Origin: a virus | Lineage: Duplodnaviria; Heunggongvirae; Uroviricota; Caudoviricetes | DNA length: 38,716 nt | Strand: one strand, 5' to 3' | IMG/VR virus record: IMGVR_UViG_2740892369_000044 | Shown here: positions 1-32,297 of the stretch, in pieces | Layout: each line of letters opens with the position of its first letter | Position numbering within the stretch: the first letter of the stretch is position 1 | The notes under the pieces: model-generated | The model's input: the letters and a program-made list of their open reading frames with translations, nothing else | Told to the model about the DNA's origin: nothing | Database searches by the model: none | Made by a program: the position numbers and the translations under genes

Positions 1-1257
1 GTGCTTACCGATACAAAATTAAAGAACCTCAAGCCACAGGACAAACTGTACAAAGTTTCCGATCGTGACGGGCTGTATGTAGCTGTGCTTACGTCAGGTA
101 CGGTCTCGTTTCGCTATGACTACCGTATCAACGGTCGCCGCGAAACACTGGTAATCGGGCAGTATGGGCGTGACGGTATCAGCCTGGCAGAAGCGCGGGA
201 AGAACTGATTGCTGCAAAGAAGCTGCTTAAAGCAGGCCAGTCGCCGGCTGCGGCTAAACGTGACGGTATCAAAAAGATTCGTGGTGCCGAGACATTTGCG
301 GTACATACCGACAGTTATATGAAACACGTCATCCTGGCTGAAAGTACCCGCGCAATGAAGCAGGCGGTGATCGACCGTGACATACTTCCGGTTCTTGGCA
401 ACAAAATGATGGCTGAAATTACCACATCGATGGTTCGTGATTTATGTGACCGGATTGTCGAACGCGGTGGCCGTGCAACAGCAGTGCAGGCCAGGGAGAT
501 TATCAGCAGCGTATACCGTCACGCCAATGACCGCGGTCATGGTTTGTTTAATCCTGCGGCTGATATTAAACCTTCGTCTATCGCCATATTTAAACCACGA
601 GAGCGAACACTGACACCAGAAGAAATTGGCCTGTTCTTCCGCACGTTGGATGCCATTGGCGCTATGGGCACTATGAAAATGGCTTTAAAGCTGGTGCTTA
701 TCACTATGGTTCGTAAAGGCGAATTCACCAATGCAACGTGGGATGAAATAGATTTTAAAAAATGGACATGGACAATTCCTTCAGACCGTATGAAGGGAAG
801 CCGGGCGCACGTTATTTACCTGCCTAAACAGGCACAGGATATATTGGTCGGGTTACAGATGTGCGCTGGTGGAAGTGAATATCTGGTTCCTGGTCGTTAC
901 AATTTCCGGAAGCCATTATCTAATGCCGCGCTGAACTCTCTGATCGACAGAACGGTGAAAATAATAAATGAAGATGGTGAGCATATTCAGGATTTCACCG
1001 TACACGATATGCGCCGTACAGCCAGTACGTTGTTGCATGAGGCTGGTTATCCTTCAGACTGGATTGAAAAGGCTCTGGCACATGAGCAGAAAGGTGTGCG
1101 CGCCGTATATAACAAAGCGGAATACGCAAGACAGCGCGCCTACATGTTGCAGCAGTGGGCCGATATGATTGATTCCTGGATTGACGGGGAGCATACGGAT
1201 CTGATTCCGTTCTCCCCGTCGAAGTTTGAGAAGTGGATGGAAGACAGTAATAAATAA
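1..1257 (+). CDS. int: Tyrosine integrase, P4-like family; starts with GTG at the window edge, so the true 5' end may lie upstream
   Basis: 418-aa ORF; N-terminus (LTDTKLKNLKP...LYKVSDRDGLY...SFRYDYRINGRRETL) and C-terminal catalytic region (HDMRRTASTLLHEAGY...VRAVYNKAEYARQRAYMLQQWADMID) are typical of P4-type integrases. Confidence 0.9.
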   Translation: MLTDTKLKNLKPQDKLYKVSDRDGLYVAVLTSGTVSFRYDYRINGRRETLVIGQYGRDGISLAEAREELIAAKKLLKAGQSPAAAKRDGIKKIRGAETFAVHTDSYMKHVILAESTRAMKQAVIDRDILPVLGNKMMAEITTSMVRDLCDRIVERGGRATAVQAREIISSVYRHANDRGHGLFNPAADIKPSSIAIFKPRERTLTPEEIGLFFRTLDAIGAMGTMKMALKLVLITMVRKGEFTNATWDEIDFKKWTWTIPSDRMKGSRAHVIYLPKQAQDILVGLQMCAGGSEYLVPGRYNFRKPLSNAALNSLIDRTVKIINEDGEHIQDFTVHDMRRTASTLLHEAGYPSDWIEKALAHEQKGVRAVYNKAEYARQRAYMLQQWADMIDSWIDGEHTDLIPFSPSKFEKWMEDSNK

Positions 1258-5435: not shown

Positions 5436-5512
5436 TTACCGTTGAGGTAATAATTATGCGTATCTGGTTTGGTGTCAATAGATATGAGTTAAAAAAATTA
5501 CCCGTTAGGTAA
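5436..5512. promoter_or_regulatory. OL-like operator region: two copies of the TTACC-N5-GGTAA inverted repeat (about 5436-5450 and 5498-5512)
   Basis: TTACCGTTGAGGTAA and TTACCCGTTAGGTAA read directly, upstream of the leftward early operon and downstream of the repressor terminator. Confidence 0.6.
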
Positions 5513-5569: not shown

Positions 5570-6154
5570 TTATTGTTTGTTTTTTTCGTTCTGGTTGATG
5601 ACAAATTCAATGTAACTTTCGATCTTTGCCTTCTCTGTTTCAGGTAACAATGCGTAGCGCGAGCGGTCATAGTTGATAGTTGCAGGGTCATGCGGATGAA
5701 TCAGTAGTTCATATCCGTGACGCCCGAATGCAGATGCAACATTCTCCAGGGTGGAAATGGAAACGCTGACCTCATTGTTTAACAGGCGGCTTATTGTCAC
5801 CTGGGCGACGCCGGATGCGCGGTGAAGTTTTCCCTGAGTTGAAAGGTCGCGGCTTTCACTCATCCAGCGTTCCAGGTTGTGAGCTGCCAGCTGACCAATG
5901 TCGCTTGGGCCGACAGGCTGAAAACCTTCCTGAGAAAGCGAGCGATCGATATCAAGCCAGTTACGGGGTTTATTGGCGGCAGCTTCAATTTTTCGTGCAA
6001 CCTGGTCGCCGATAACCTTCTTGCCAAGAGCCCAGCGGTTTACCAGATTTGCCTGAGTTCCAAGTTTTTCAGCCATCCGCGTCTGAACACCATTGAATTC
6101 ACGGTCGATCAAGTCGTTGAGATTTTGCCTGCGGACGTCCTGGATACTTTTCAT
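5570..6154 (-). CDS. CI-like prophage repressor with two XRE-type HTH domains and no S24 peptidase domain
   Basis: 194 aa; HTH-like segments near residues 25-60 (QTRMAEKLGTQANLVNRWALGKK) and 115-150 (VAQVTISRLLNNEVSVSISTLENVASAF); divergent from the Cro-like gene with operators between. Confidence 0.7.
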   Translation of the reverse strand: MKSIQDVRRQNLNDLIDREFNGVQTRMAEKLGTQANLVNRWALGKKVIGDQVARKIEAAANKPRNWLDIDRSLSQEGFQPVGPSDIGQLAAHNLERWMSESRDLSTQGKLHRASGVAQVTISRLLNNEVSVSISTLENVASAFGRHGYELLIHPHDPATINYDRSRYALLPETEKAKIESYIEFVINQNEKNKQ

Positions 6155-6209: not shown

Positions 6210-6272
6210 TTACCCAACAGGTAAATGCACCTCATGGGTAACTATCCTTGATTTTTGTTACCTTATAGGTGA
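6210..6272. promoter_or_regulatory. OR-like operator cluster: three tandem TTACC-N5-GGTAA-type sites (about 6210-6224, 6227-6241, 6258-6272) between the divergent repressor and Cro-like genes
   Basis: TTACCCAACAGGTAA, GCACCTCATGGGTAA and TTACCTTATAGGTGA read directly in the 154-bp intergenic region. Confidence 0.7.
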
Positions 6273-8541: not shown

Positions 8542-8618
8542 TTACCTGGTGGGTAATAAAATATACTAAAATCTATTGATTTCGTGTCTTATGTGGTTTT
8601 TAATTACCTCAGGGGTAA
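8542..8618. promoter_or_regulatory. Promoter region with two TTACC-N5-GGTAA sites (about 8542-8556 and 8604-8618) flanking a TTATGTGGTT box (about 8589-8598)
   Basis: TTACCTGGTGGGTAA and TTACCTCAGGGGTAA read directly; the second site abuts the ATG at 8622. Confidence 0.55.
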
Positions 8619-8621
8619 ATC

Positions 8622-8966
8622 ATGAGAAAACAGATACAGGCTCTTGGTCGACTCAAAACAGGCCAGATGAACAAAACAGAATCTGCGTATTGCCAGCACC
8701 TTGAGCAGCGTAAACGTGCAGGGGAAATCGCCTGGTATCGATTCGAGGGTCTCAAGCTGCAGTTAGCTGACAACACGTTCTATACGCCCGATTTTGCTGT
8801 GATGCTCGCCACCGGCGAGATGGAACTGCACGAAGTGAAAGGTTTCTGGACCGATGACGCCAGGGTGAAAACCAAAGTCGCCGCAGATCAGTATCCGTTC
8901 CGAATCATCGGGGTAACGGTTAAACCAAAGAAAGCAGGTGGTGGCTGGAACATCGAAGAGTTCTGA
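8622..8966 (+). CDS. VRR-NUC domain nuclease-fold protein
   Basis: 114 aa; FYTPDFAVM...ELHEVKGF matches the PD-x(n)-E-x-K signature of VRR-NUC domains. Confidence 0.65.
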   Translation: MRKQIQALGRLKTGQMNKTESAYCQHLEQRKRAGEIAWYRFEGLKLQLADNTFYTPDFAVMLATGEMELHEVKGFWTDDARVKTKVAADQYPFRIIGVTVKPKKAGGGWNIEEF

Positions 8967-14684: not shown

Positions 14685-14699
14685 ATACCTTTAAGGTAA
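14685..14699. promoter_or_regulatory. TTACC-TTAAA-GGTAT site (minus-strand sense) overlapping the ribosome-binding site of the moron gene
   Basis: Read directly; the 24 nt ending at the ATG are near-identical to those in front of the VRR-NUC gene at 8601-8624. Confidence 0.45.
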
Positions 14700-14739: not shown

Positions 14740-14771
14740 GAACTGGAAGCAATGAGTTATGCCTTCCGTGG

Positions 14772-14902: not shown

Positions 14903-14979
14903 TGGCGTGGCATGCAGGATTCGAACCTGCGACCAACCGCTTAGAAGGCGGTTGCTCTGTCCAGCTGAGCTAATGCCAC
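14903..14979 (-). tRNA. tRNA-Arg, anticodon UCU, with encoded CCA
   Basis: Hand-folded cloverleaf: acceptor GTGGCAT/ATGCCAC, D-stem GCTC/GAGC, anticodon stem ACCGC/GCGGT with loop CTTCTAA, T-arm GCAGG-TTCGAAT-CCTGC; body resembles argU-type tRNAs but the acceptor stem differs. Confidence 0.85.
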
Positions 14980-15301: not shown

Positions 15302-15368
15302 TTACCTGAAAGGTAATAATTTGTGCGTTAAATGTCAACTATCTACGATAAATAAATCATATGTGGTT
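15302..15368 (+). promoter_or_regulatory. Late-promoter-like cassette upstream of the portal operon: TTACCTGAAAGGTAA site (about 15302-15316) and CATATGTGGTT box (about 15358-15368)
   Basis: Both elements read directly; first ATG at 15407. Confidence 0.55.
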
Positions 15369-19299: not shown

Positions 19300-19350
19300 C
19301 GCCTGTTATTAACCTGTGGGTCGTAACAGACCCACTAATGGAGAAAGAAG

Positions 19351-19788
19351 ATGATCACCGACAAACTGTTGATGTTCTCCGAAGCTCAGGCGGTTACGAA
19401 TACCGCGGCTTCTACTGACGTAATCGATCTCGGTCCAATTGACGGAAAACGTCGTGATATCGGCGTGGGTTACCCGCTTGAGTTTTGGGTGCTGGTTAAC
19501 GAAGCCGCCACGGCAAGTGGTGAGGCAACTGTAAACATCCAGTTGCAGACGAGTGAGAATAACAGCTCTTGGACCACTATTTATGATAGTGGTGCGTTGG
19601 CAAAGGCCACCCTGACAGCAGGTAAGCGAGTTGTTTCTGCAAAGGTGCCAGCCGGTGTTCAGCGATATCTGCGTGTTAACTACTCCGTCGCAACTGGCCC
19701 ACTAACGGCCGGCAAATTCACTGCGGGTATCAGTCTTGATGTTGATGCCAATACGCCGTATCCGATCCGCTCAAAAGTAACTGGTTAA
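19351..19788 (+). CDS. Hypothetical virion protein (possible capsid decoration or head-tail protein)
   Basis: 145-aa ORF after capsid; beta-rich composition. Confidence 0.45.
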   Translation: MITDKLLMFSEAQAVTNTAASTDVIDLGPIDGKRRDIGVGYPLEFWVLVNEAATASGEATVNIQLQTSENNSSWTTIYDSGALAKATLTAGKRVVSAKVPAGVQRYLRVNYSVATGPLTAGKFTAGISLDVDANTPYPIRSKVTG

Positions 19789-19789
19789 G

Positions 19790-20134
19790 GTGATATCGAT
19801 GTCAGGTGAGAAACCAAGATACCGCGTTCTGCGCCTCTCTCATATCCATAACACTCTGTGGCCGGAGGGGGCAGAAATCGAATACGAAGGTGAGCCTGGT
19901 AGCGCACTGGAACCTGTTAACGATGCAGCCAGACAGGCAAAAGCAAAAGTTGCAGGAAAGGTGTCAATGGCAGCAACCAGCACCAAAATCATCAACGATG
20001 TGTCAGATGATGGTGAACTGGATAAGCTCCGTGAAGAGTACGAATTGCTCTTTAACGAGAAGCCACACCATAACGCCAAAGCTGAAACGCTCCGCGAGAA
20101 GATCGCAGATAAGCGTAAAGAACTGGGCGTGTAA
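19790..20134 (+). CDS. Hypothetical virion-associated protein
   Basis: 114-aa coupled ORF. Confidence 0.45.
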   Translation: MISMSGEKPRYRVLRLSHIHNTLWPEGAEIEYEGEPGSALEPVNDAARQAKAKVAGKVSMAATSTKIINDVSDDGELDKLREEYELLFNEKPHHNAKAETLREKIADKRKELGV

Positions 20135-28910: not shown

Positions 28911-31385
28911 ATGAGACAGGAATGTATACAAGCGGTCCAGCAGGCGGCGCAGCGCACGTTAACGGCGCGAGAAATACAGAACATTGAAGACCGCATTTAT
29001 CGAAATATGCGCTCCATTGCTCGTGATGACCCGATGTCGTGGCGACAACTTTCCGAATCAGAACGGTTGTATCGTGCAGCACAATTGGCATCTGAAGAAT
29101 TACAGCGAGAAGCGGCATTAAAGAAACGTCGTGTGGCCCTCACTATAGCCGCACGTCAGAGATTGGATAAATTTATCAATAGCTATCAAGGGGCTGATGG
29201 GAAACTTGGCGCTCTTAACCGTACTATTGCTTTTAATGCAGACGGTAAATCGAATTTCCTCTCTGTTGAATCCAGAACAAAAGCCACTCGTGATTATGCA
29301 TTGAGTCAATTGCAGGAGGCATTTGAAGCAGTTGATCCTCGCTTTTTTGGCCTGTTTGAAGATGAAGCGGGCGTGCGTGACCTGGTATATGAAATGCGAG
29401 GGCAAAATACTGGCAATGCTAAAGCAAGAAAAGGTGCTAAGGCGTGGAGAGAAGTGACAGATCTACTGCGCCGCCGGTTTAATGATGCTGGTGGGGACAT
29501 TGGCTATCTCGAAAACTGGGGGATCCCTCAACATCATTCTATGGAAAAGGTTGGGGCGGTATCAAAAGATAAATGGGTTAGCGATGTTATAGGTAAGCTG
29601 GATCGCAAATATTATACCCGAGCCGATGGACAACTGATGAACGATGCCGAGTTGTCTGCATTTCTTGGAGAGGCTTATAACACGATCGCTACTGGTGGGC
29701 TGAATAAGCTTACTGATACCGGAATGCGAATTTCCGGCGTACGTGCTAACCGTGGTAATGCATCACGACAGATACATTTCAAAGATGCAGATTCCTATCT
29801 GCAATATCAGCAACTTTATGGCGATCGCTCTCTATGGGAAATCATGGTCGGTCACCTGGAAGGTATCAGTAAAGATATTGCGCTGGTGGAAACATATGGC
29901 CCAAACCCCGATCATGTTTTCCGCTCTCTTCTTGATCAGGTTAAGGCAGAAACGGCAACAGCTAACCCGAGTAAAACCGGTAGCGTCGAGCGTCTGGCGA
30001 ACAAAACAGAGAACTTGTACAACTTTATTTCCGGAAAAACACAGCCTGTAGCGAATCCGCACATCGCGCGATGGTCTGACAATATCCGCAACTGGCTGGT
30101 TGCCAGCAGACTCGGATCCGCGTTGCTGTCATCGTTCTCTGATCTTGGAACCATGTATCTGTCTGCGAAGGTTACCAACCTTCCAATGAACCAGTTATTT
30201 CGCAACCAGCTTGAAGCTATGGACCCAACGAACCGTACTGAGCTTGCGCGGGCGCGCCGCGCTGGCCTGGCGATGGAATCTCTACTTGGCAGCGTTAACC
30301 GCTGGGCGATGGATAATATGGGGCCGTCTGTGTCTCGTTGGGCGGCAACGGCGGTAATGCGTGCCAGTGGGCTTACAGCATGGTCAGATGCGCACAAGCG
30401 CGCCTATGGCGTAACCATGATGGGAAGCCTGGGAGAAGTAGTGTCACGGACACCAGACCTTCGTAGCCTCGATGACTCTGATTTTCGTATCCTGAAAAGT
30501 AAAGGGATTACTGACACAGACTGGAGCGTATGGAAGCTGGCGCAACAGGAGGACTGGGGGAACGGTAATAATACGATGCTGACACCGGAAAGCATTATGC
30601 GTATCCCTGATTCAGCAGTTAAACATCTTGGTGAGCCTGAACGCGTGAAATTTGAGGCAATGCGTAAACTGCTCGGTGCCGTAACTGAAGAAGTTGATAT
30701 GGCTGTTATTACACCGGGAGCACGTGAGCAACTGATAACCGGTTCTGGTATTCAGCGTGGAACATGGAAAGGTGAATTAACGAGAAGTGTTTTCCTGTTT
30801 AAATCGTTCCCTATCTCGGTTGTTATGCGTCACTGGTCACGCGCTATGGGTATGCCGTCTGCTGGTGGGCGTGCGGCATATATTGCGACGTTTATTGCCA
30901 GTACGACCATTCTTGGCGCTTTGTCGCAGCAACTTAACGACCTTGCGTCTGGTCGTAATCCTCGAGAGATGACAGGAGAAGATGCCGCAAAATTCTGGCT
31001 TGGTGCTCTACTGAAAGGTGGTGGTCTTGGCCTTTACGGTGACTTTTTATTGTCAGATCACACTAGGTACGGAAGCGGCGCGCTGGCGTCGATGCTTGGC
31101 CCGGTAGCTGGTCTGGTTGATGACGTAGTGAAGATTGCTCAGGGCATACCGTTAAATGCTGTGGAAGGGAAGAGTGAGCAGACTGGTGGTGATCTGGTGA
31201 AGCTGGGGAAAGGTTTGATGCCTGGTGCGAATCTCTGGTACTTGAAGGCGGCTCTCGATCACATGATCTTTAACCAGATGCAGGAGTATTTTTCACCAGG
31301 CTATTTGCGTAAAATGGAGCAACGTTCGAAGAAAGAGTTTAACCAGACATACTGGTGGCGACCTCAGGATGTCACTCCGCAATAA
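28911..31385 (+). CDS. Internal virion/ejection protein (gp16-like)
   Basis: 824-aa ORF in the position of T7 gp16. Confidence 0.5.
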   Translation: MRQECIQAVQQAAQRTLTAREIQNIEDRIYRNMRSIARDDPMSWRQLSESERLYRAAQLASEELQREAALKKRRVALTIAARQRLDKFINSYQGADGKLGALNRTIAFNADGKSNFLSVESRTKATRDYALSQLQEAFEAVDPRFFGLFEDEAGVRDLVYEMRGQNTGNAKARKGAKAWREVTDLLRRRFNDAGGDIGYLENWGIPQHHSMEKVGAVSKDKWVSDVIGKLDRKYYTRADGQLMNDAELSAFLGEAYNTIATGGLNKLTDTGMRISGVRANRGNASRQIHFKDADSYLQYQQLYGDRSLWEIMVGHLEGISKDIALVETYGPNPDHVFRSLLDQVKAETATANPSKTGSVERLANKTENLYNFISGKTQPVANPHIARWSDNIRNWLVASRLGSALLSSFSDLGTMYLSAKVTNLPMNQLFRNQLEAMDPTNRTELARARRAGLAMESLLGSVNRWAMDNMGPSVSRWAATAVMRASGLTAWSDAHKRAYGVTMMGSLGEVVSRTPDLRSLDDSDFRILKSKGITDTDWSVWKLAQQEDWGNGNNTMLTPESIMRIPDSAVKHLGEPERVKFEAMRKLLGAVTEEVDMAVITPGAREQLITGSGIQRGTWKGELTRSVFLFKSFPISVVMRHWSRAMGMPSAGGRAAYIATFIASTTILGALSQQLNDLASGRNPREMTGEDAAKFWLGALLKGGGLGLYGDFLLSDHTRYGSGALASMLGPVAGLVDDVVKIAQGIPLNAVEGKSEQTGGDLVKLGKGLMPGANLWYLKAALDHMIFNQMQEYFSPGYLRKMEQRSKKEFNQTYWWRPQDVTPQ

Positions 31386-31393
31386 GGAAGTGT

Positions 31394-31568
31394 TGTGTTT
31401 TTAATTATTTTGAGTGTGATAATTTCTGGTGGATTGTTATTTATTGACCGCTACAAATATTTTCTTAACCCTCAGACTCAAGCTATTTGCTGGTTCATCT
31501 TTGTTGTGCAGGGAGTAGTTCTTGTTGCAAGCCTTATTGAGGGGAGGCCTCTTATTTTTACTGGGTAA
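31394..31568 (+). CDS. Small two-TM membrane protein (about 58 aa), not in the ORF track
   Basis: Hand-translated GTG-initiated ORF with AAGGAAG ribosome-binding site overlapping the upstream stop; hydrophobic sequence FLIILSVIISGGLLF...WFIFVVQGVVLVASLI. Confidence 0.3.
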
Positions 31569-31580
31569 ATAGGTGACTAC

Positions 31581-31877
31581 ATGCAAGCTATAGGATTCAT
31601 TGTTTATATCGTCGTTGGTCTTTTTCAGTTGGCAGCAATTATGGCTGGGCTTGAATCATGGTGGGGATTGCACTGGATAATTGCAGCCCCCATTGCTTTC
31701 ATCGTGAGCTATATTCCATTTGTTGGAGCGATTGTTGGTATGGTTGGCGCTGTGGATGTATGGCGGTGGGAGTGGTGGCAGGCTGGCCTTCTCTTCTTTG
31801 GTGGGATCATCTTTGCTATTGTCTGCGGTGGAATGTCATCATTTTTCGAATGGCTATCATTCAGAAAAGGGACGTGA
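31581..31877 (+). CDS. Small multi-TM membrane protein
   Basis: 98 aa; three or four hydrophobic helices, Trp-rich. Confidence 0.55.
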   Translation: MQAIGFIVYIVVGLFQLAAIMAGLESWWGLHWIIAAPIAFIVSYIPFVGAIVGMVGAVDVWRWEWWQAGLLFFGGIIFAIVCGGMSSFFEWLSFRKGT

Positions 31878-31885
31878 CATGTCAC

Positions 31886-31910
31886 AGGCCGCTTTCGCGG
31901 CCTTTTCTTT
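31886..31910 (+). terminator. Rho-independent terminator
   Basis: Stem AGGCCGC / GCGGCCT with loop TTTC, followed by TTTCTTT. Confidence 0.65.
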
Positions 31911-32166
31911 ATGTGGTTTGTTTTCGTAATTGTTCGGCACAATAGTCGAGATGTGTTTGCAGATCCTGCATAGACATCTGTGAGCTGGTGACGTAGTTAA
32001 TCAGTGCAGTCAGTTCGGCAAGTGGGCCATCGACATTAAATCCATCCTTATCGAGATCCCGGAGTAATTTCATCAAGTGCGATCCCTCCACCAGTGACCT
32101 GACGCCTCCCGGCGTGTGAATCCTTTCGGTAAATCCGTCTTCCAGTGGATAGTGATACTGCTGCAT
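31909..32166 (-). CDS. Small SOS-controlled protein (about 85 aa); candidate antirepressor or other SOS effector
   Basis: ATG at 32166 with GGAGAAG ribosome-binding site (track ORF starts at TTG 32184); canonical LexA box about 20 bp upstream; antisense to the late operon. Confidence 0.55.
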   Translation of the reverse strand: MQQYHYPLEDGFTERIHTPGGVRSLVEGSHLMKLLRDLDKDGFNVDGPLAELTALINYVTSSQMSMQDLQTHLDYCAEQLRKQTT

Positions 32167-32185
32167 CTTATCTTCTCCATGCAAT

Positions 32186-32205
32186 AACTGTATAAATATA
32201 CAGTA
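32186..32205. promoter_or_regulatory. LexA (SOS) box AACTGTATAAATATACAGTA
   Basis: 18 of 20 matches to the consensus TACTGTATATATATACAGTA, with correct CTGT-N8-ACAG spacing and AT-rich centre; position anchored to ORF-track codons. Confidence 0.75.
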
Positions 32206-32242
32206 TCAAATAATTTGTTTGCTATCCAGCACGTTTTGCGAA

Positions 32243-32297
32243 TCACCTGAAAGGTAATATCTGTTCGTATTTATGGGTTATATATCCATATGTGGTT
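32243..32297 (+). promoter_or_regulatory. Late-promoter-like cassette upstream of the tailspike: TCACCTGAAAGGTAA (about 32243-32257) and CATATGTGGTT (about 32287-32297)
   Basis: Read directly; first ATG at 32362. Confidence 0.55.

Follow-up and report, generated by a model that had tools for sequence, protein, structure and literature searches.

The question raised by this locus is how a prophage whose repressor is without a self-cleavage module could be coupled to the SOS response of its host. In a stretch of viral DNA of 38,716 nucleotides (hereafter the window), a close match to the LexA operator lies just upstream of a short minus-strand gene. An earlier, sequence-only reading of these letters proposed that the LexA-repressed small protein is a trans-acting antirepressor of a repressor that RecA cannot cleave, and that it may belong to a new antirepressor family. 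The first of these proposals is supported by homology, in that both partners match chains of one crystallised antirepressor-repressor complex. The second falls by the same comparison.

A sequence search of the PDB returned a single match for the 85-aa product, namely chain E of entry 5D50 ("Anti-repressor protein", 86 aa; E 1.3e-47), which aligned over residues 2-85 and is 88% identical globally. Entry 5D50 is the Rep-Ant complex of Salmonella phage SPC32H, an epsilon15-like podophage (Uetakevirus). The product is also 98% identical to phiV10 p24 and 85% identical to epsilon15 gp19, and matches phrog_450 (E 1e-47), which PHROGs lists as of unknown function. Judged by this homology, the 85-aa protein is the E. 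coli copy of the known SPC32H antirepressor, Ant; it is real and it is not new. Kim and Ryu (2013, J Virol 87:11775) described the Ant-Rep family, and the structure followed with Kim et al. (2016, PNAS 113:E2480). Papers that cite these two state that SPC32H Ant is produced after the self-cleavage of LexA and inhibits the repressor by protein-protein contact. The Ant/Rep system, its LexA control and its structure are, in short, already published for a phage of the same genus (2013 and 2016).

Domain libraries gave little help in reaching this identification. A Pfam search of Ant at E up to 1 yielded neither DinI nor any other match, save a sub-threshold DUF724, and found neither a Bro-N nor an ANT domain; an NCBIfam search returned nothing meaningful. 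Pfam and PHROG searches thus place Ant outside the DinI, Tum and Bro-N/ANT families, and no sequence relationship to Tum was detectable, in agreement with the earlier impression that the protein resembles neither DinI nor Tum. With phrog_1760 (anti-repressor) Ant aligns in part, to its C-terminal 50 positions (E 4.5e-7), which shows a shared module and not family membership. All E. coli and Klebsiella phage records, most other phage records and all sampled matches in E. coli genomes label the gene "hypothetical protein"; the name "anti-repressor" is limited to a few phage records from Salmonella and some entries in UniRef. The sequence-only reading missed the family because no Pfam or NCBIfam model represents it and its records nearly all read "hypothetical protein".

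The phage itself is, by its similarity to sequenced relatives, a temperate podophage of the epsilon15/phiV10 type, genus Uetakevirus. Over 80-88% of its first 25 kb, the window is 98% identical to the E. coli phages PAS61, phiv142-3, TL-2011b and ZX5, and the chromosome of E. coli E2865 carries an ant region 100% identical to its own. An integrase-sized ORF stands at its start, and the window is therefore taken to be essentially one prophage. The window, SPC32H, epsilon15, phiV10 and their relatives agree in gene order and in where the LexA box lies. In the GenBank record of SPC32H, ant (19676..19936, minus strand) lies between an 824-aa gene followed by a small membrane-protein gene and the tailspike gene, and rep is annotated in an early-region setting that matches that of the window. 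Two small membrane-protein ORFs, both on the plus strand, separate the 824-aa virion protein gene from ant in the window, one of them (98 aa) being extra relative to SPC32H. The features discussed here are collected in Table 1.

Table 1. Coordinates of the features of the ant and rep loci in the window.
Feature	Position	Strand	Basis or remark
Palindromes downstream of rep, upstream of leftward early genes	5436..5450, 5498..5512	n/a	Motif search
rep, 194-aa repressor, presumed target of Ant	5570..6154	-	Match to 5D50 chain A; without cleavage domain
Palindromes between rep and cro-like gene	6210..6224, 6258..6272; degenerate copy 6227..6241	n/a	Motif search
824-aa virion protein gene	28911..31385	+	Flanks ant
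G+C-rich hairpin and T-run, terminator of plus-strand virion operon	31886..31903	+	Terminator scan
ant, 85-aa antirepressor gene, SPC32H Ant orthologue	31909..32166	-	PDB 5D50 match, phrog_450, locus position
Ribosome-binding site GGAGAA	32173..32178	-	6 nt before ant ATG; read from sequence
LexA operator (SOS box), putative	32186..32205	n/a	AACTGTATAAATATACAGTA; gene strand TACTGTATATTTATACAGTT; sequence match
Candidate ant promoter: -35 TGGATA (32223..32228), 17-nt spacer, -10 TACTGT (32200..32205)	32200..32228	-	Conservation
Repressor-operator-type palindrome TCACCTGAAAGGTAA	32243..32257	n/a	ant-tailspike intergenic; epsilon15 annotation of equivalent
Tailspike gene	32362..34983	+	Divergent from ant

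The LexA box is the most distinctive element of the locus. Of its 20 positions, 18 agree with the E. coli LexA consensus TACTGTATATATATACAGTA, and no other site in the 38.7-kb window comes within three mismatches of that consensus. A comparable site appeared in 0 of 100 dinucleotide shuffles of the window. The near-consensus SOS box that had been claimed is thus present, and its significance is confined to the full 20-mer. The loose pattern CTGT-N8-ACAG, matched three times in the window where 0.56 matches are expected, is not significant by itself, as 3 of 100 shuffles also reach three matches. The sequence-only reading had proposed that the site be scored by heterology index. An approximate index trained on 24 E. 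coli operators, indicative only, is 1.4 for the box and at least 12.1 for all other positions in the window, 12.1 being that of the next best site. The two other CTGT-N8-ACAG matches were rejected as LexA sites: that at 14770 has an index of 13.3, and that at 19314 falls outside the eight best-scoring positions. The box accordingly has what is looked for in an E. coli LexA operator, a 20-bp palindrome of the form TACTGT(AT)4ACAGTA with a low heterology index.

The gene beneath the box is equally well delimited. Its 85 codons begin with an ATG at 32166, 19 nt from the gene-proximal end of the box and preceded by a good ribosome-binding site, which is in keeping with the arrangement first described from the letters. 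Its placement in the late region was likewise described correctly, since it lies between virion genes and the tailspike gene, all on the plus strand, and is antisense to them. A longer version of 91 aa, listed by the ORF tool from a TTG start, was rejected; that start abuts the box and is not the start of the crystallised 86-aa homologue. Both this version and the database versions of 126-127 aa are gene calls extended too far, through the LexA box. At the other end, directly after the stop codon of ant, the terminator scan placed a hairpin of seven pairs, six of them G-C, followed by TTTCTTT, in a convergent arrangement with the virion operon that it would terminate. An equivalent hairpin exists in SPC32H, and the epsilon15 record lists its own as a rho-independent terminator.

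How LexA might act on ant follows from the geometry of the region. The ant transcript must start upstream of the ribosome-binding site, and the -10 element would therefore lie in or just before the box; LexA bound there would consequently cover the -10 or the start region. From this geometry we infer that the LexA operator overlaps the ant promoter. Conservation suggests its hexamers to be TGGATA and TACTGT, 17 nt apart, so that the first half-site of the LexA box would double as the -10: a block, GCTGGATAG, is kept in Escherichia, Salmonella and Enterobacter relatives at a fixed spacing to the box. A generic sigma-70 scan reported no promoter upstream of ant, because the proposed -10 matches at just 3 of 6 positions.

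To gauge how far this arrangement is retained, the sequence upstream of ant was aligned between the window and 13 phage loci (14 in total), namely those of SPC32H, SPC32N, epsilon15, VB_ST_E15, 65FD, phiV10, TL-2011b, PAS61, YDC107_2, Tyrion, BUCT554 and two Klebsiella phages. The distance from the LexA box to the ant ribosome-binding site is the same in all 13 other loci. The CTGT and ACAG arms are in register in 10 other Escherichia, Salmonella and Enterobacter loci, SPC32N excepted, while the 8-bp spacer between them varies; the two Klebsiella phages have ATGT. The ribosome-binding site reads GGAGAA in 11 of the 14 loci, GGAGAT in Tyrion and BUCT554, and GGAGTA in the Klebsiella phages. The window box, with two mismatches to the consensus, is closer to it than that of SPC32H, with three. 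Together with the conserved arms, this argues for selection on SOS control in the lineage.

SPC32N offers a natural point of comparison. In the ant region it differs from SPC32H by one base, a C to A change that turns ACAG into AAAG inside the box. SPC32N is reported to be the constitutive-Ant mutant. In the 2013 SPC32H study, a single base change in the LexA site reportedly leads to constitutive Ant and a lytic phage, with which the substitution in SPC32N agrees.

The second partner of the proposed switch is the repressor. Rep matches chain A of 5D50 ("Repressor") over its full length (residues 1-190; E 4e-42; 41% identity), and also 5D4Z, which is the C-terminal half of the same SPC32H protein. 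In Pfam, residues 106-147 match HTH_3, and residues 21-61 match the HTH-like YdaS_toxin more weakly. No Peptidase_S24 match was found in Pfam at E up to 1, and the Rep sequence contains neither an Ala-Gly nor a Cys-Gly dipeptide. Rep therefore does not resemble repressors of the lambda CI or LexA type, which combine a C-terminal S24 domain, a Ser/Lys dyad and an Ala-Gly site; by these signatures it is without a RecA-stimulated autocleavage module. The description of Rep as a CI-like protein of 194 aa with two HTH domains and no S24 domain can be kept as it stood. The repressors of phiV10, ZX5 and many E. coli relatives have exactly this sequence (100% identity), and those of epsilon15 and SPC32H are 42% identical to it.

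Candidate operators for Rep are numerous. The palindrome TTACC-N5-GGTAA occurs 13 times in the window, where 0.68 copies are expected, and 18 times in SPC32H, where 10 copies are perfect and all 10 of these are intergenic. By our reading of the ORF map all 13 window copies are intergenic as well, those at 14685 and 35512 overlapping ORFs as listed by the tool. Clusters lie on both sides of rep, and single or paired copies precede the terminase, portal, tailspike and lysis operons. The arrangement between rep and the cro-like gene recurs in SPC32H (34390..34451), and the epsilon15 equivalents of the palindromes downstream of rep are annotated as repressor binding sites. A further copy, at a distance of 38 bp from the LexA box, occupies the ant-tailspike spacer. 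Its arms are conserved across relatives while its N5 spacer varies, and its epsilon15 equivalent, a 17-mer (ATTACCTTACAGGTAAT) between gp19 (ant) and the tailspike gene, is annotated as a protein_bind feature (repressor, lysogeny).

Two further observations concern this motif. Firstly, it marks every promoter region of the window. Secondly, the loop of the copy at 8604..8618 is the ribosome-binding site of the next gene, which prompted the idea of an RNA hairpin. As a general account of the motif we rejected the hairpin, given a stem of 5 bp, the location of sites upstream of promoters on either side of rep, and the annotation of repressor sites in epsilon15.

Taken together, these elements can be read as the SOS-sensing arm of a lysis-lysogeny switch, in which LexA represses ant, the SOS response relieves this repression, and Ant removes a repressor that cannot cleave itself. 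We put the probability of this reading at roughly 0.9. In a lysogen, host LexA would occupy the box, over the -10 or start region of the ant promoter, such that no Ant is made, and Rep would sit on the TTACC-N5-GGTAA operators and keep the phage promoters shut. DNA damage would activate RecA and lead LexA to cleave itself, upon which ant would be transcribed and Ant could bind Rep, which has no autocleavage module of its own. In SPC32H, Rep is described as bound to DNA as a tetramer, and tetrameric Ant as binding two Rep dimers and breaking that tetramer; by analogy, the window Ant tetramer would take up two Rep dimers and dissociate the DNA-binding form. Once Rep had left its operators, lytic development would follow.

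In this scheme, LexA control, Ant-Rep binding and DNA-damage inducibility are carried over from relatives. Lysogens of ZX5, whose Rep and Ant are identical to those of the window, rise from 1e7 to 1e9 PFU/mL with mitomycin C, and overexpression of the ZX5 repressor (the same sequence) blocks lytic growth. With a DNA-damaging microcin, induction of phiV10-species prophages rises 21- to 47-fold. Homologues of Ant were found in 35 phage records and those of Rep in 37, with near-identical counts by organism name; the additional Rep records are one Escherichia record and one weak Pseudomonas match. The co-occurrence of the two proteins across these 35-37 records may be counted as indirect support for their binding.

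Three other readings were weighed, and all three are weak. According to the first, which we consider improbable, Ant is genuinely LexA-controlled but is not the main inducer of its own phiV10-type prophage, and another factor, such as an antirepressor of the Bro-N type, is needed. Ant might then no longer fit a divergent Rep, or might act mainly in trans on other Uetakevirus repressors. The disparity between the two proteins gives this reading its footing, since Ant is 88% and Rep 41% identical to the SPC32H counterparts. By part, the identity of Rep is 53% in the N-terminal DNA-binding region, drops to 32% for the middle domain and is 47% over the C-terminal part (residues 161-194), which corresponds to the tetramerisation domain that is described in SPC32H as also carrying the contact with Ant. 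At 41% Rep identity, the Ant-Rep interface cannot count as proven, and it is from SPC32H Rep that we infer the properties of the phiV10-type protein.

An alternative inducer is, moreover, at hand in close relatives. In phiV10 and ZX5, an extra Bro-N protein with an Ant-like C-terminus is encoded next to ant. The resemblance amounts to 45% identity over Ant residues 2-32 (BLASTP) and extends to residues 34-75 in another frame (tblastn), as well as to the phrog_1760 match. Overexpression of the ZX5 Bro-N protein reduced lysogeny, and it was this protein that was tested there as an anti-repressor. The window, however, contains no Bro-N homologue, Ant being the sole match when the window was searched with Ant, and the two small membrane-protein ORFs stand where phiV10 has its Bro-N gene. 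Ant and Rep also co-occur in every Uetakevirus record found, and the LexA box is conserved and nearer to the consensus here than in SPC32H. These points favour Ant as the inducer of its own prophage.

It could also be argued that the box controls the divergent tailspike gene, or another transcript, and is close to ant incidentally, as it lies within an intergenic region common to both genes. We hold this to be very improbable. The box is 19 nt from the ant ATG and 157 nt from that of the tailspike gene, and all relatives keep it at one distance from the ant ribosome-binding site, while their sequence on the tailspike side varies. The tailspike side, furthermore, has elements of its own. The intergenic palindrome sits 44 bp before a CATATGTGGTT module (32287..32297), and this module recurs 44-56 bp after TTACC-N5-GGTAA palindromes in front of four plus-strand operons. 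The box lies upstream of both elements, which recur before plus-strand operons that have no LexA box. Control of ant by Rep through this palindrome was considered as well; such palindromes keep a constant spacing of 44-56 bp to the module, and the intergenic copy more probably serves the tailspike promoter than ant.

That the small protein has some other SOS role, for instance RecA modulation like that of DinI or a host-directed accessory function, with its antirepressor likeness superficial, might be entertained since no curated Pfam or NCBIfam family covers it and nearly all records are hypothetical, but is scarcely credible for a protein 88% identical over its whole length to one crystallised with a phage repressor and showing no Pfam match up to E 1, to DinI or otherwise, bar the sub-threshold DUF724 hit.

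If Ant is the SOS-responsive inducer that we propose, its sphere of action may exceed its own prophage. Ant is 77-88% identical across Rep classes, about the same as within a class, while Reps of different classes share 41-45%, and the TTACC-N5-GGTAA palindromes around rep are alike in both classes. On these grounds, the Ant of one prophage could lift the repression of a relative that has a different Rep, whether co-resident or superinfecting. Antirepressors of the Gifsy prophages act across prophages in trans. Tentatively, then, Ant may be a cross-acting inducer across the immunity classes of Uetakevirus, and, with a conserved Rep operator lying 38 bp from the box, LexA and Rep could jointly control ant or the divergent tailspike promoter; we regard this combination as possible but doubtful.

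The practical value of the identification lies in annotation. The gene is present in 531 of 5426 complete E. coli genomes (approximately 10%), where it goes by the label of a hypothetical protein and is recognised by no Pfam or NCBIfam model. A study published in 2022 on ZX5, a near-identical phage, examined a Bro-N-type protein as the anti-repressor; its text is silent on the small LexA-controlled Ant, and the ZX5 record labels the ant gene a hypothetical protein. Recognising Ant would explain the response of phiV10-type prophages to DNA damage, including those of Shiga-toxin-producing E. coli and other pathogenic strains.

The known systems that bear comparison include P22 Ant and the Bro-N/ANT-domain antirepressors. 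These are likewise trans-acting antirepressors, and the terminal segment of some Bro-N proteins (phrog_1760, phiV10 p23) is related to the window Ant, but the latter has neither a Bro-N nor an ANT domain. P22 ant, moreover, is described as being under the control of Mnt rather than LexA.

The same logic governs Tum of coliphage 186, the Gifsy and Fels-2 antirepressors and AntC of N15, in which LexA represses a small antirepressor that inactivates the phage repressor by binding to it after SOS induction. None of them, however, has a detectable sequence relationship to Ant. The 2013 SPC32H work reportedly sets Ant of the SPC32H type apart in structure from the antirepressors of Siphoviridae and Myoviridae. 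Such an Ant is described as dissociating the Rep tetramer rather than blocking its DNA-binding surface.

The loci of epsilon15 (gp19 and repressor) and phiV10 (p24 and repressor) are orthologous to ant and rep of the window, although gp19 and p24 are still labelled hypothetical proteins in their records and phiV10 carries, downstream of ant, a Bro-N anti-immunity gene that is absent from the window. SPC32H is the closest characterised counterpart. It differs in that its Rep is of another sequence class (41% identity), while the window phage has E. coli as its host and carries the extra 98-aa membrane-protein gene before ant. The two share their genus, their gene order and the distance from box to ribosome-binding site, along with an Ant at 88% identity and a full-length homologue of Rep; in both, TTACC-N5-GGTAA palindromes flank rep and occupy the ant-tailspike spacer. 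Every feature by which an SPC32H-type switch can be recognised at the sequence level, that is Ant homology, Rep homology, a repressor with no autocleavage module, a LexA operator and an antisense position, was found in the window.

The operator palindrome, TTACC-N5-GGTAA, occurs 13 times in the window against 0.68 copies expected. Judged from the ORF map and the sequences, all 13 copies are intergenic, with those starting at 14685 and 35512 overlapping ORFs in the ORF tool's listing. The same palindrome is present at matching relative places in Salmonella phage SPC32H, and is annotated as a repressor binding site in the epsilon15 record. The window repressor (Rep) and that of SPC32H share a conserved putative recognition helix (NLVNRW), despite an overall identity of only 41%. 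Given these shared palindromes and the conserved helix, the two Rep classes may have operators in common.

A motif on the + strand, CATATGTGGTT, was found in four copies where 0.82 were expected, a count reached in none of 100 shuffles. Each copy lies 44-56 bp past an operator palindrome and 20-65 bp ahead of the ATG of a downstream + strand operon, these being an early gene, the portal operon, the tailspike gene, and the lysis cassette. The motif does not fit the standard sigma-70 -10 element and looks like a phage-specific promoter module. At one operator copy, TTACCTCAGGGGTAA, the spacer doubles as the Shine-Dalgarno-like element for the gene that follows, whose ATG is at 8622, and an identical arrangement is found at SPC32H 36034..36048. 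A repressor bound at this copy would cover the transcript start or the translation initiation region.

Coordinates of features in the window and, where indicated, in phiV10
Feature	Position	Strand	Remark
CATATGTGGTT copies	8588..8598, 15358..15368, 32287..32297, 35559..35569	+	4 copies
TTACC-N5-GGTAA (15-bp sites, starts)	5436, 5498, 6210, 6258, 6595, 8542, 8604, 11765, 11783, 14685, 15302, 32243, 35512
Operator TTACCTCAGGGGTAA	8604..8618		N5 spacer AGGGG
tRNA-Arg, anticodon TCT	14903..14979	-	large intergenic region before portal operon
57-aa hydrophobic ORF	31395..31568	+	between virion genes and ant
98-aa predicted membrane protein	31581..31877	+	phrog_3075, listed as unknown function
Perfect 12-bp palindrome GTGACATGTCAC	31873..31884		overlaps stop codon of 98-aa ORF
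phiV10 p23, Bro-N protein	L004 (phiV10 locus) 36..688	-	annotated anti-immunity protein; phrog_1760

The antirepressor gene, ant, is called at 126-127 aa in many public annotations (PAS61, L009 1038..1418; database proteins P0004 and P0026, and others) because the start is placed upstream and the frame reads through the LexA box. In the window (32182..32208), a TGA directly upstream of the box closes this long frame (TTTGATACTG, versus TTTGCTACTG in relatives), and the longer forms were rejected as annotation artefacts. The Klebsiella phages BUCT711 and Kp4865-1, with Ant identities of about 60-63%, also carry a LexA box upstream of ant (ATATGTATATATATACAGTA), its left arm being ATGT rather than CTGT and the remainder perfect consensus.

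Ant-like sequence is not confined to small proteins. The C-terminal segment of phiV10 p23 is related to Ant (45% identity over Ant residues 2-32), and the Ant fold accordingly also occurs at the C-terminus of larger Bro-N antirepressors, as a module. At this locus the counterpart of Ant 34-75 follows in a different frame, suggesting that phiV10 has undergone a frameshift. No Bro-N gene of this type is present in the window.

The content of the interval that separates ant from the virion genes varies among relatives, and this slot may house an accessory or superinfection-exclusion gene. In place of the two ORFs of the window, SPC32H encodes a single membrane protein of 46 aa, and phiV10 carries the Bro-N gene. 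The GTGACATGTCAC palindrome adjoins a terminator hairpin (31886..31903) and is conserved beside the equivalent hairpin in SPC32H, which likewise carries a tRNA-Arg gene in the intergenic region ahead of its portal operon.
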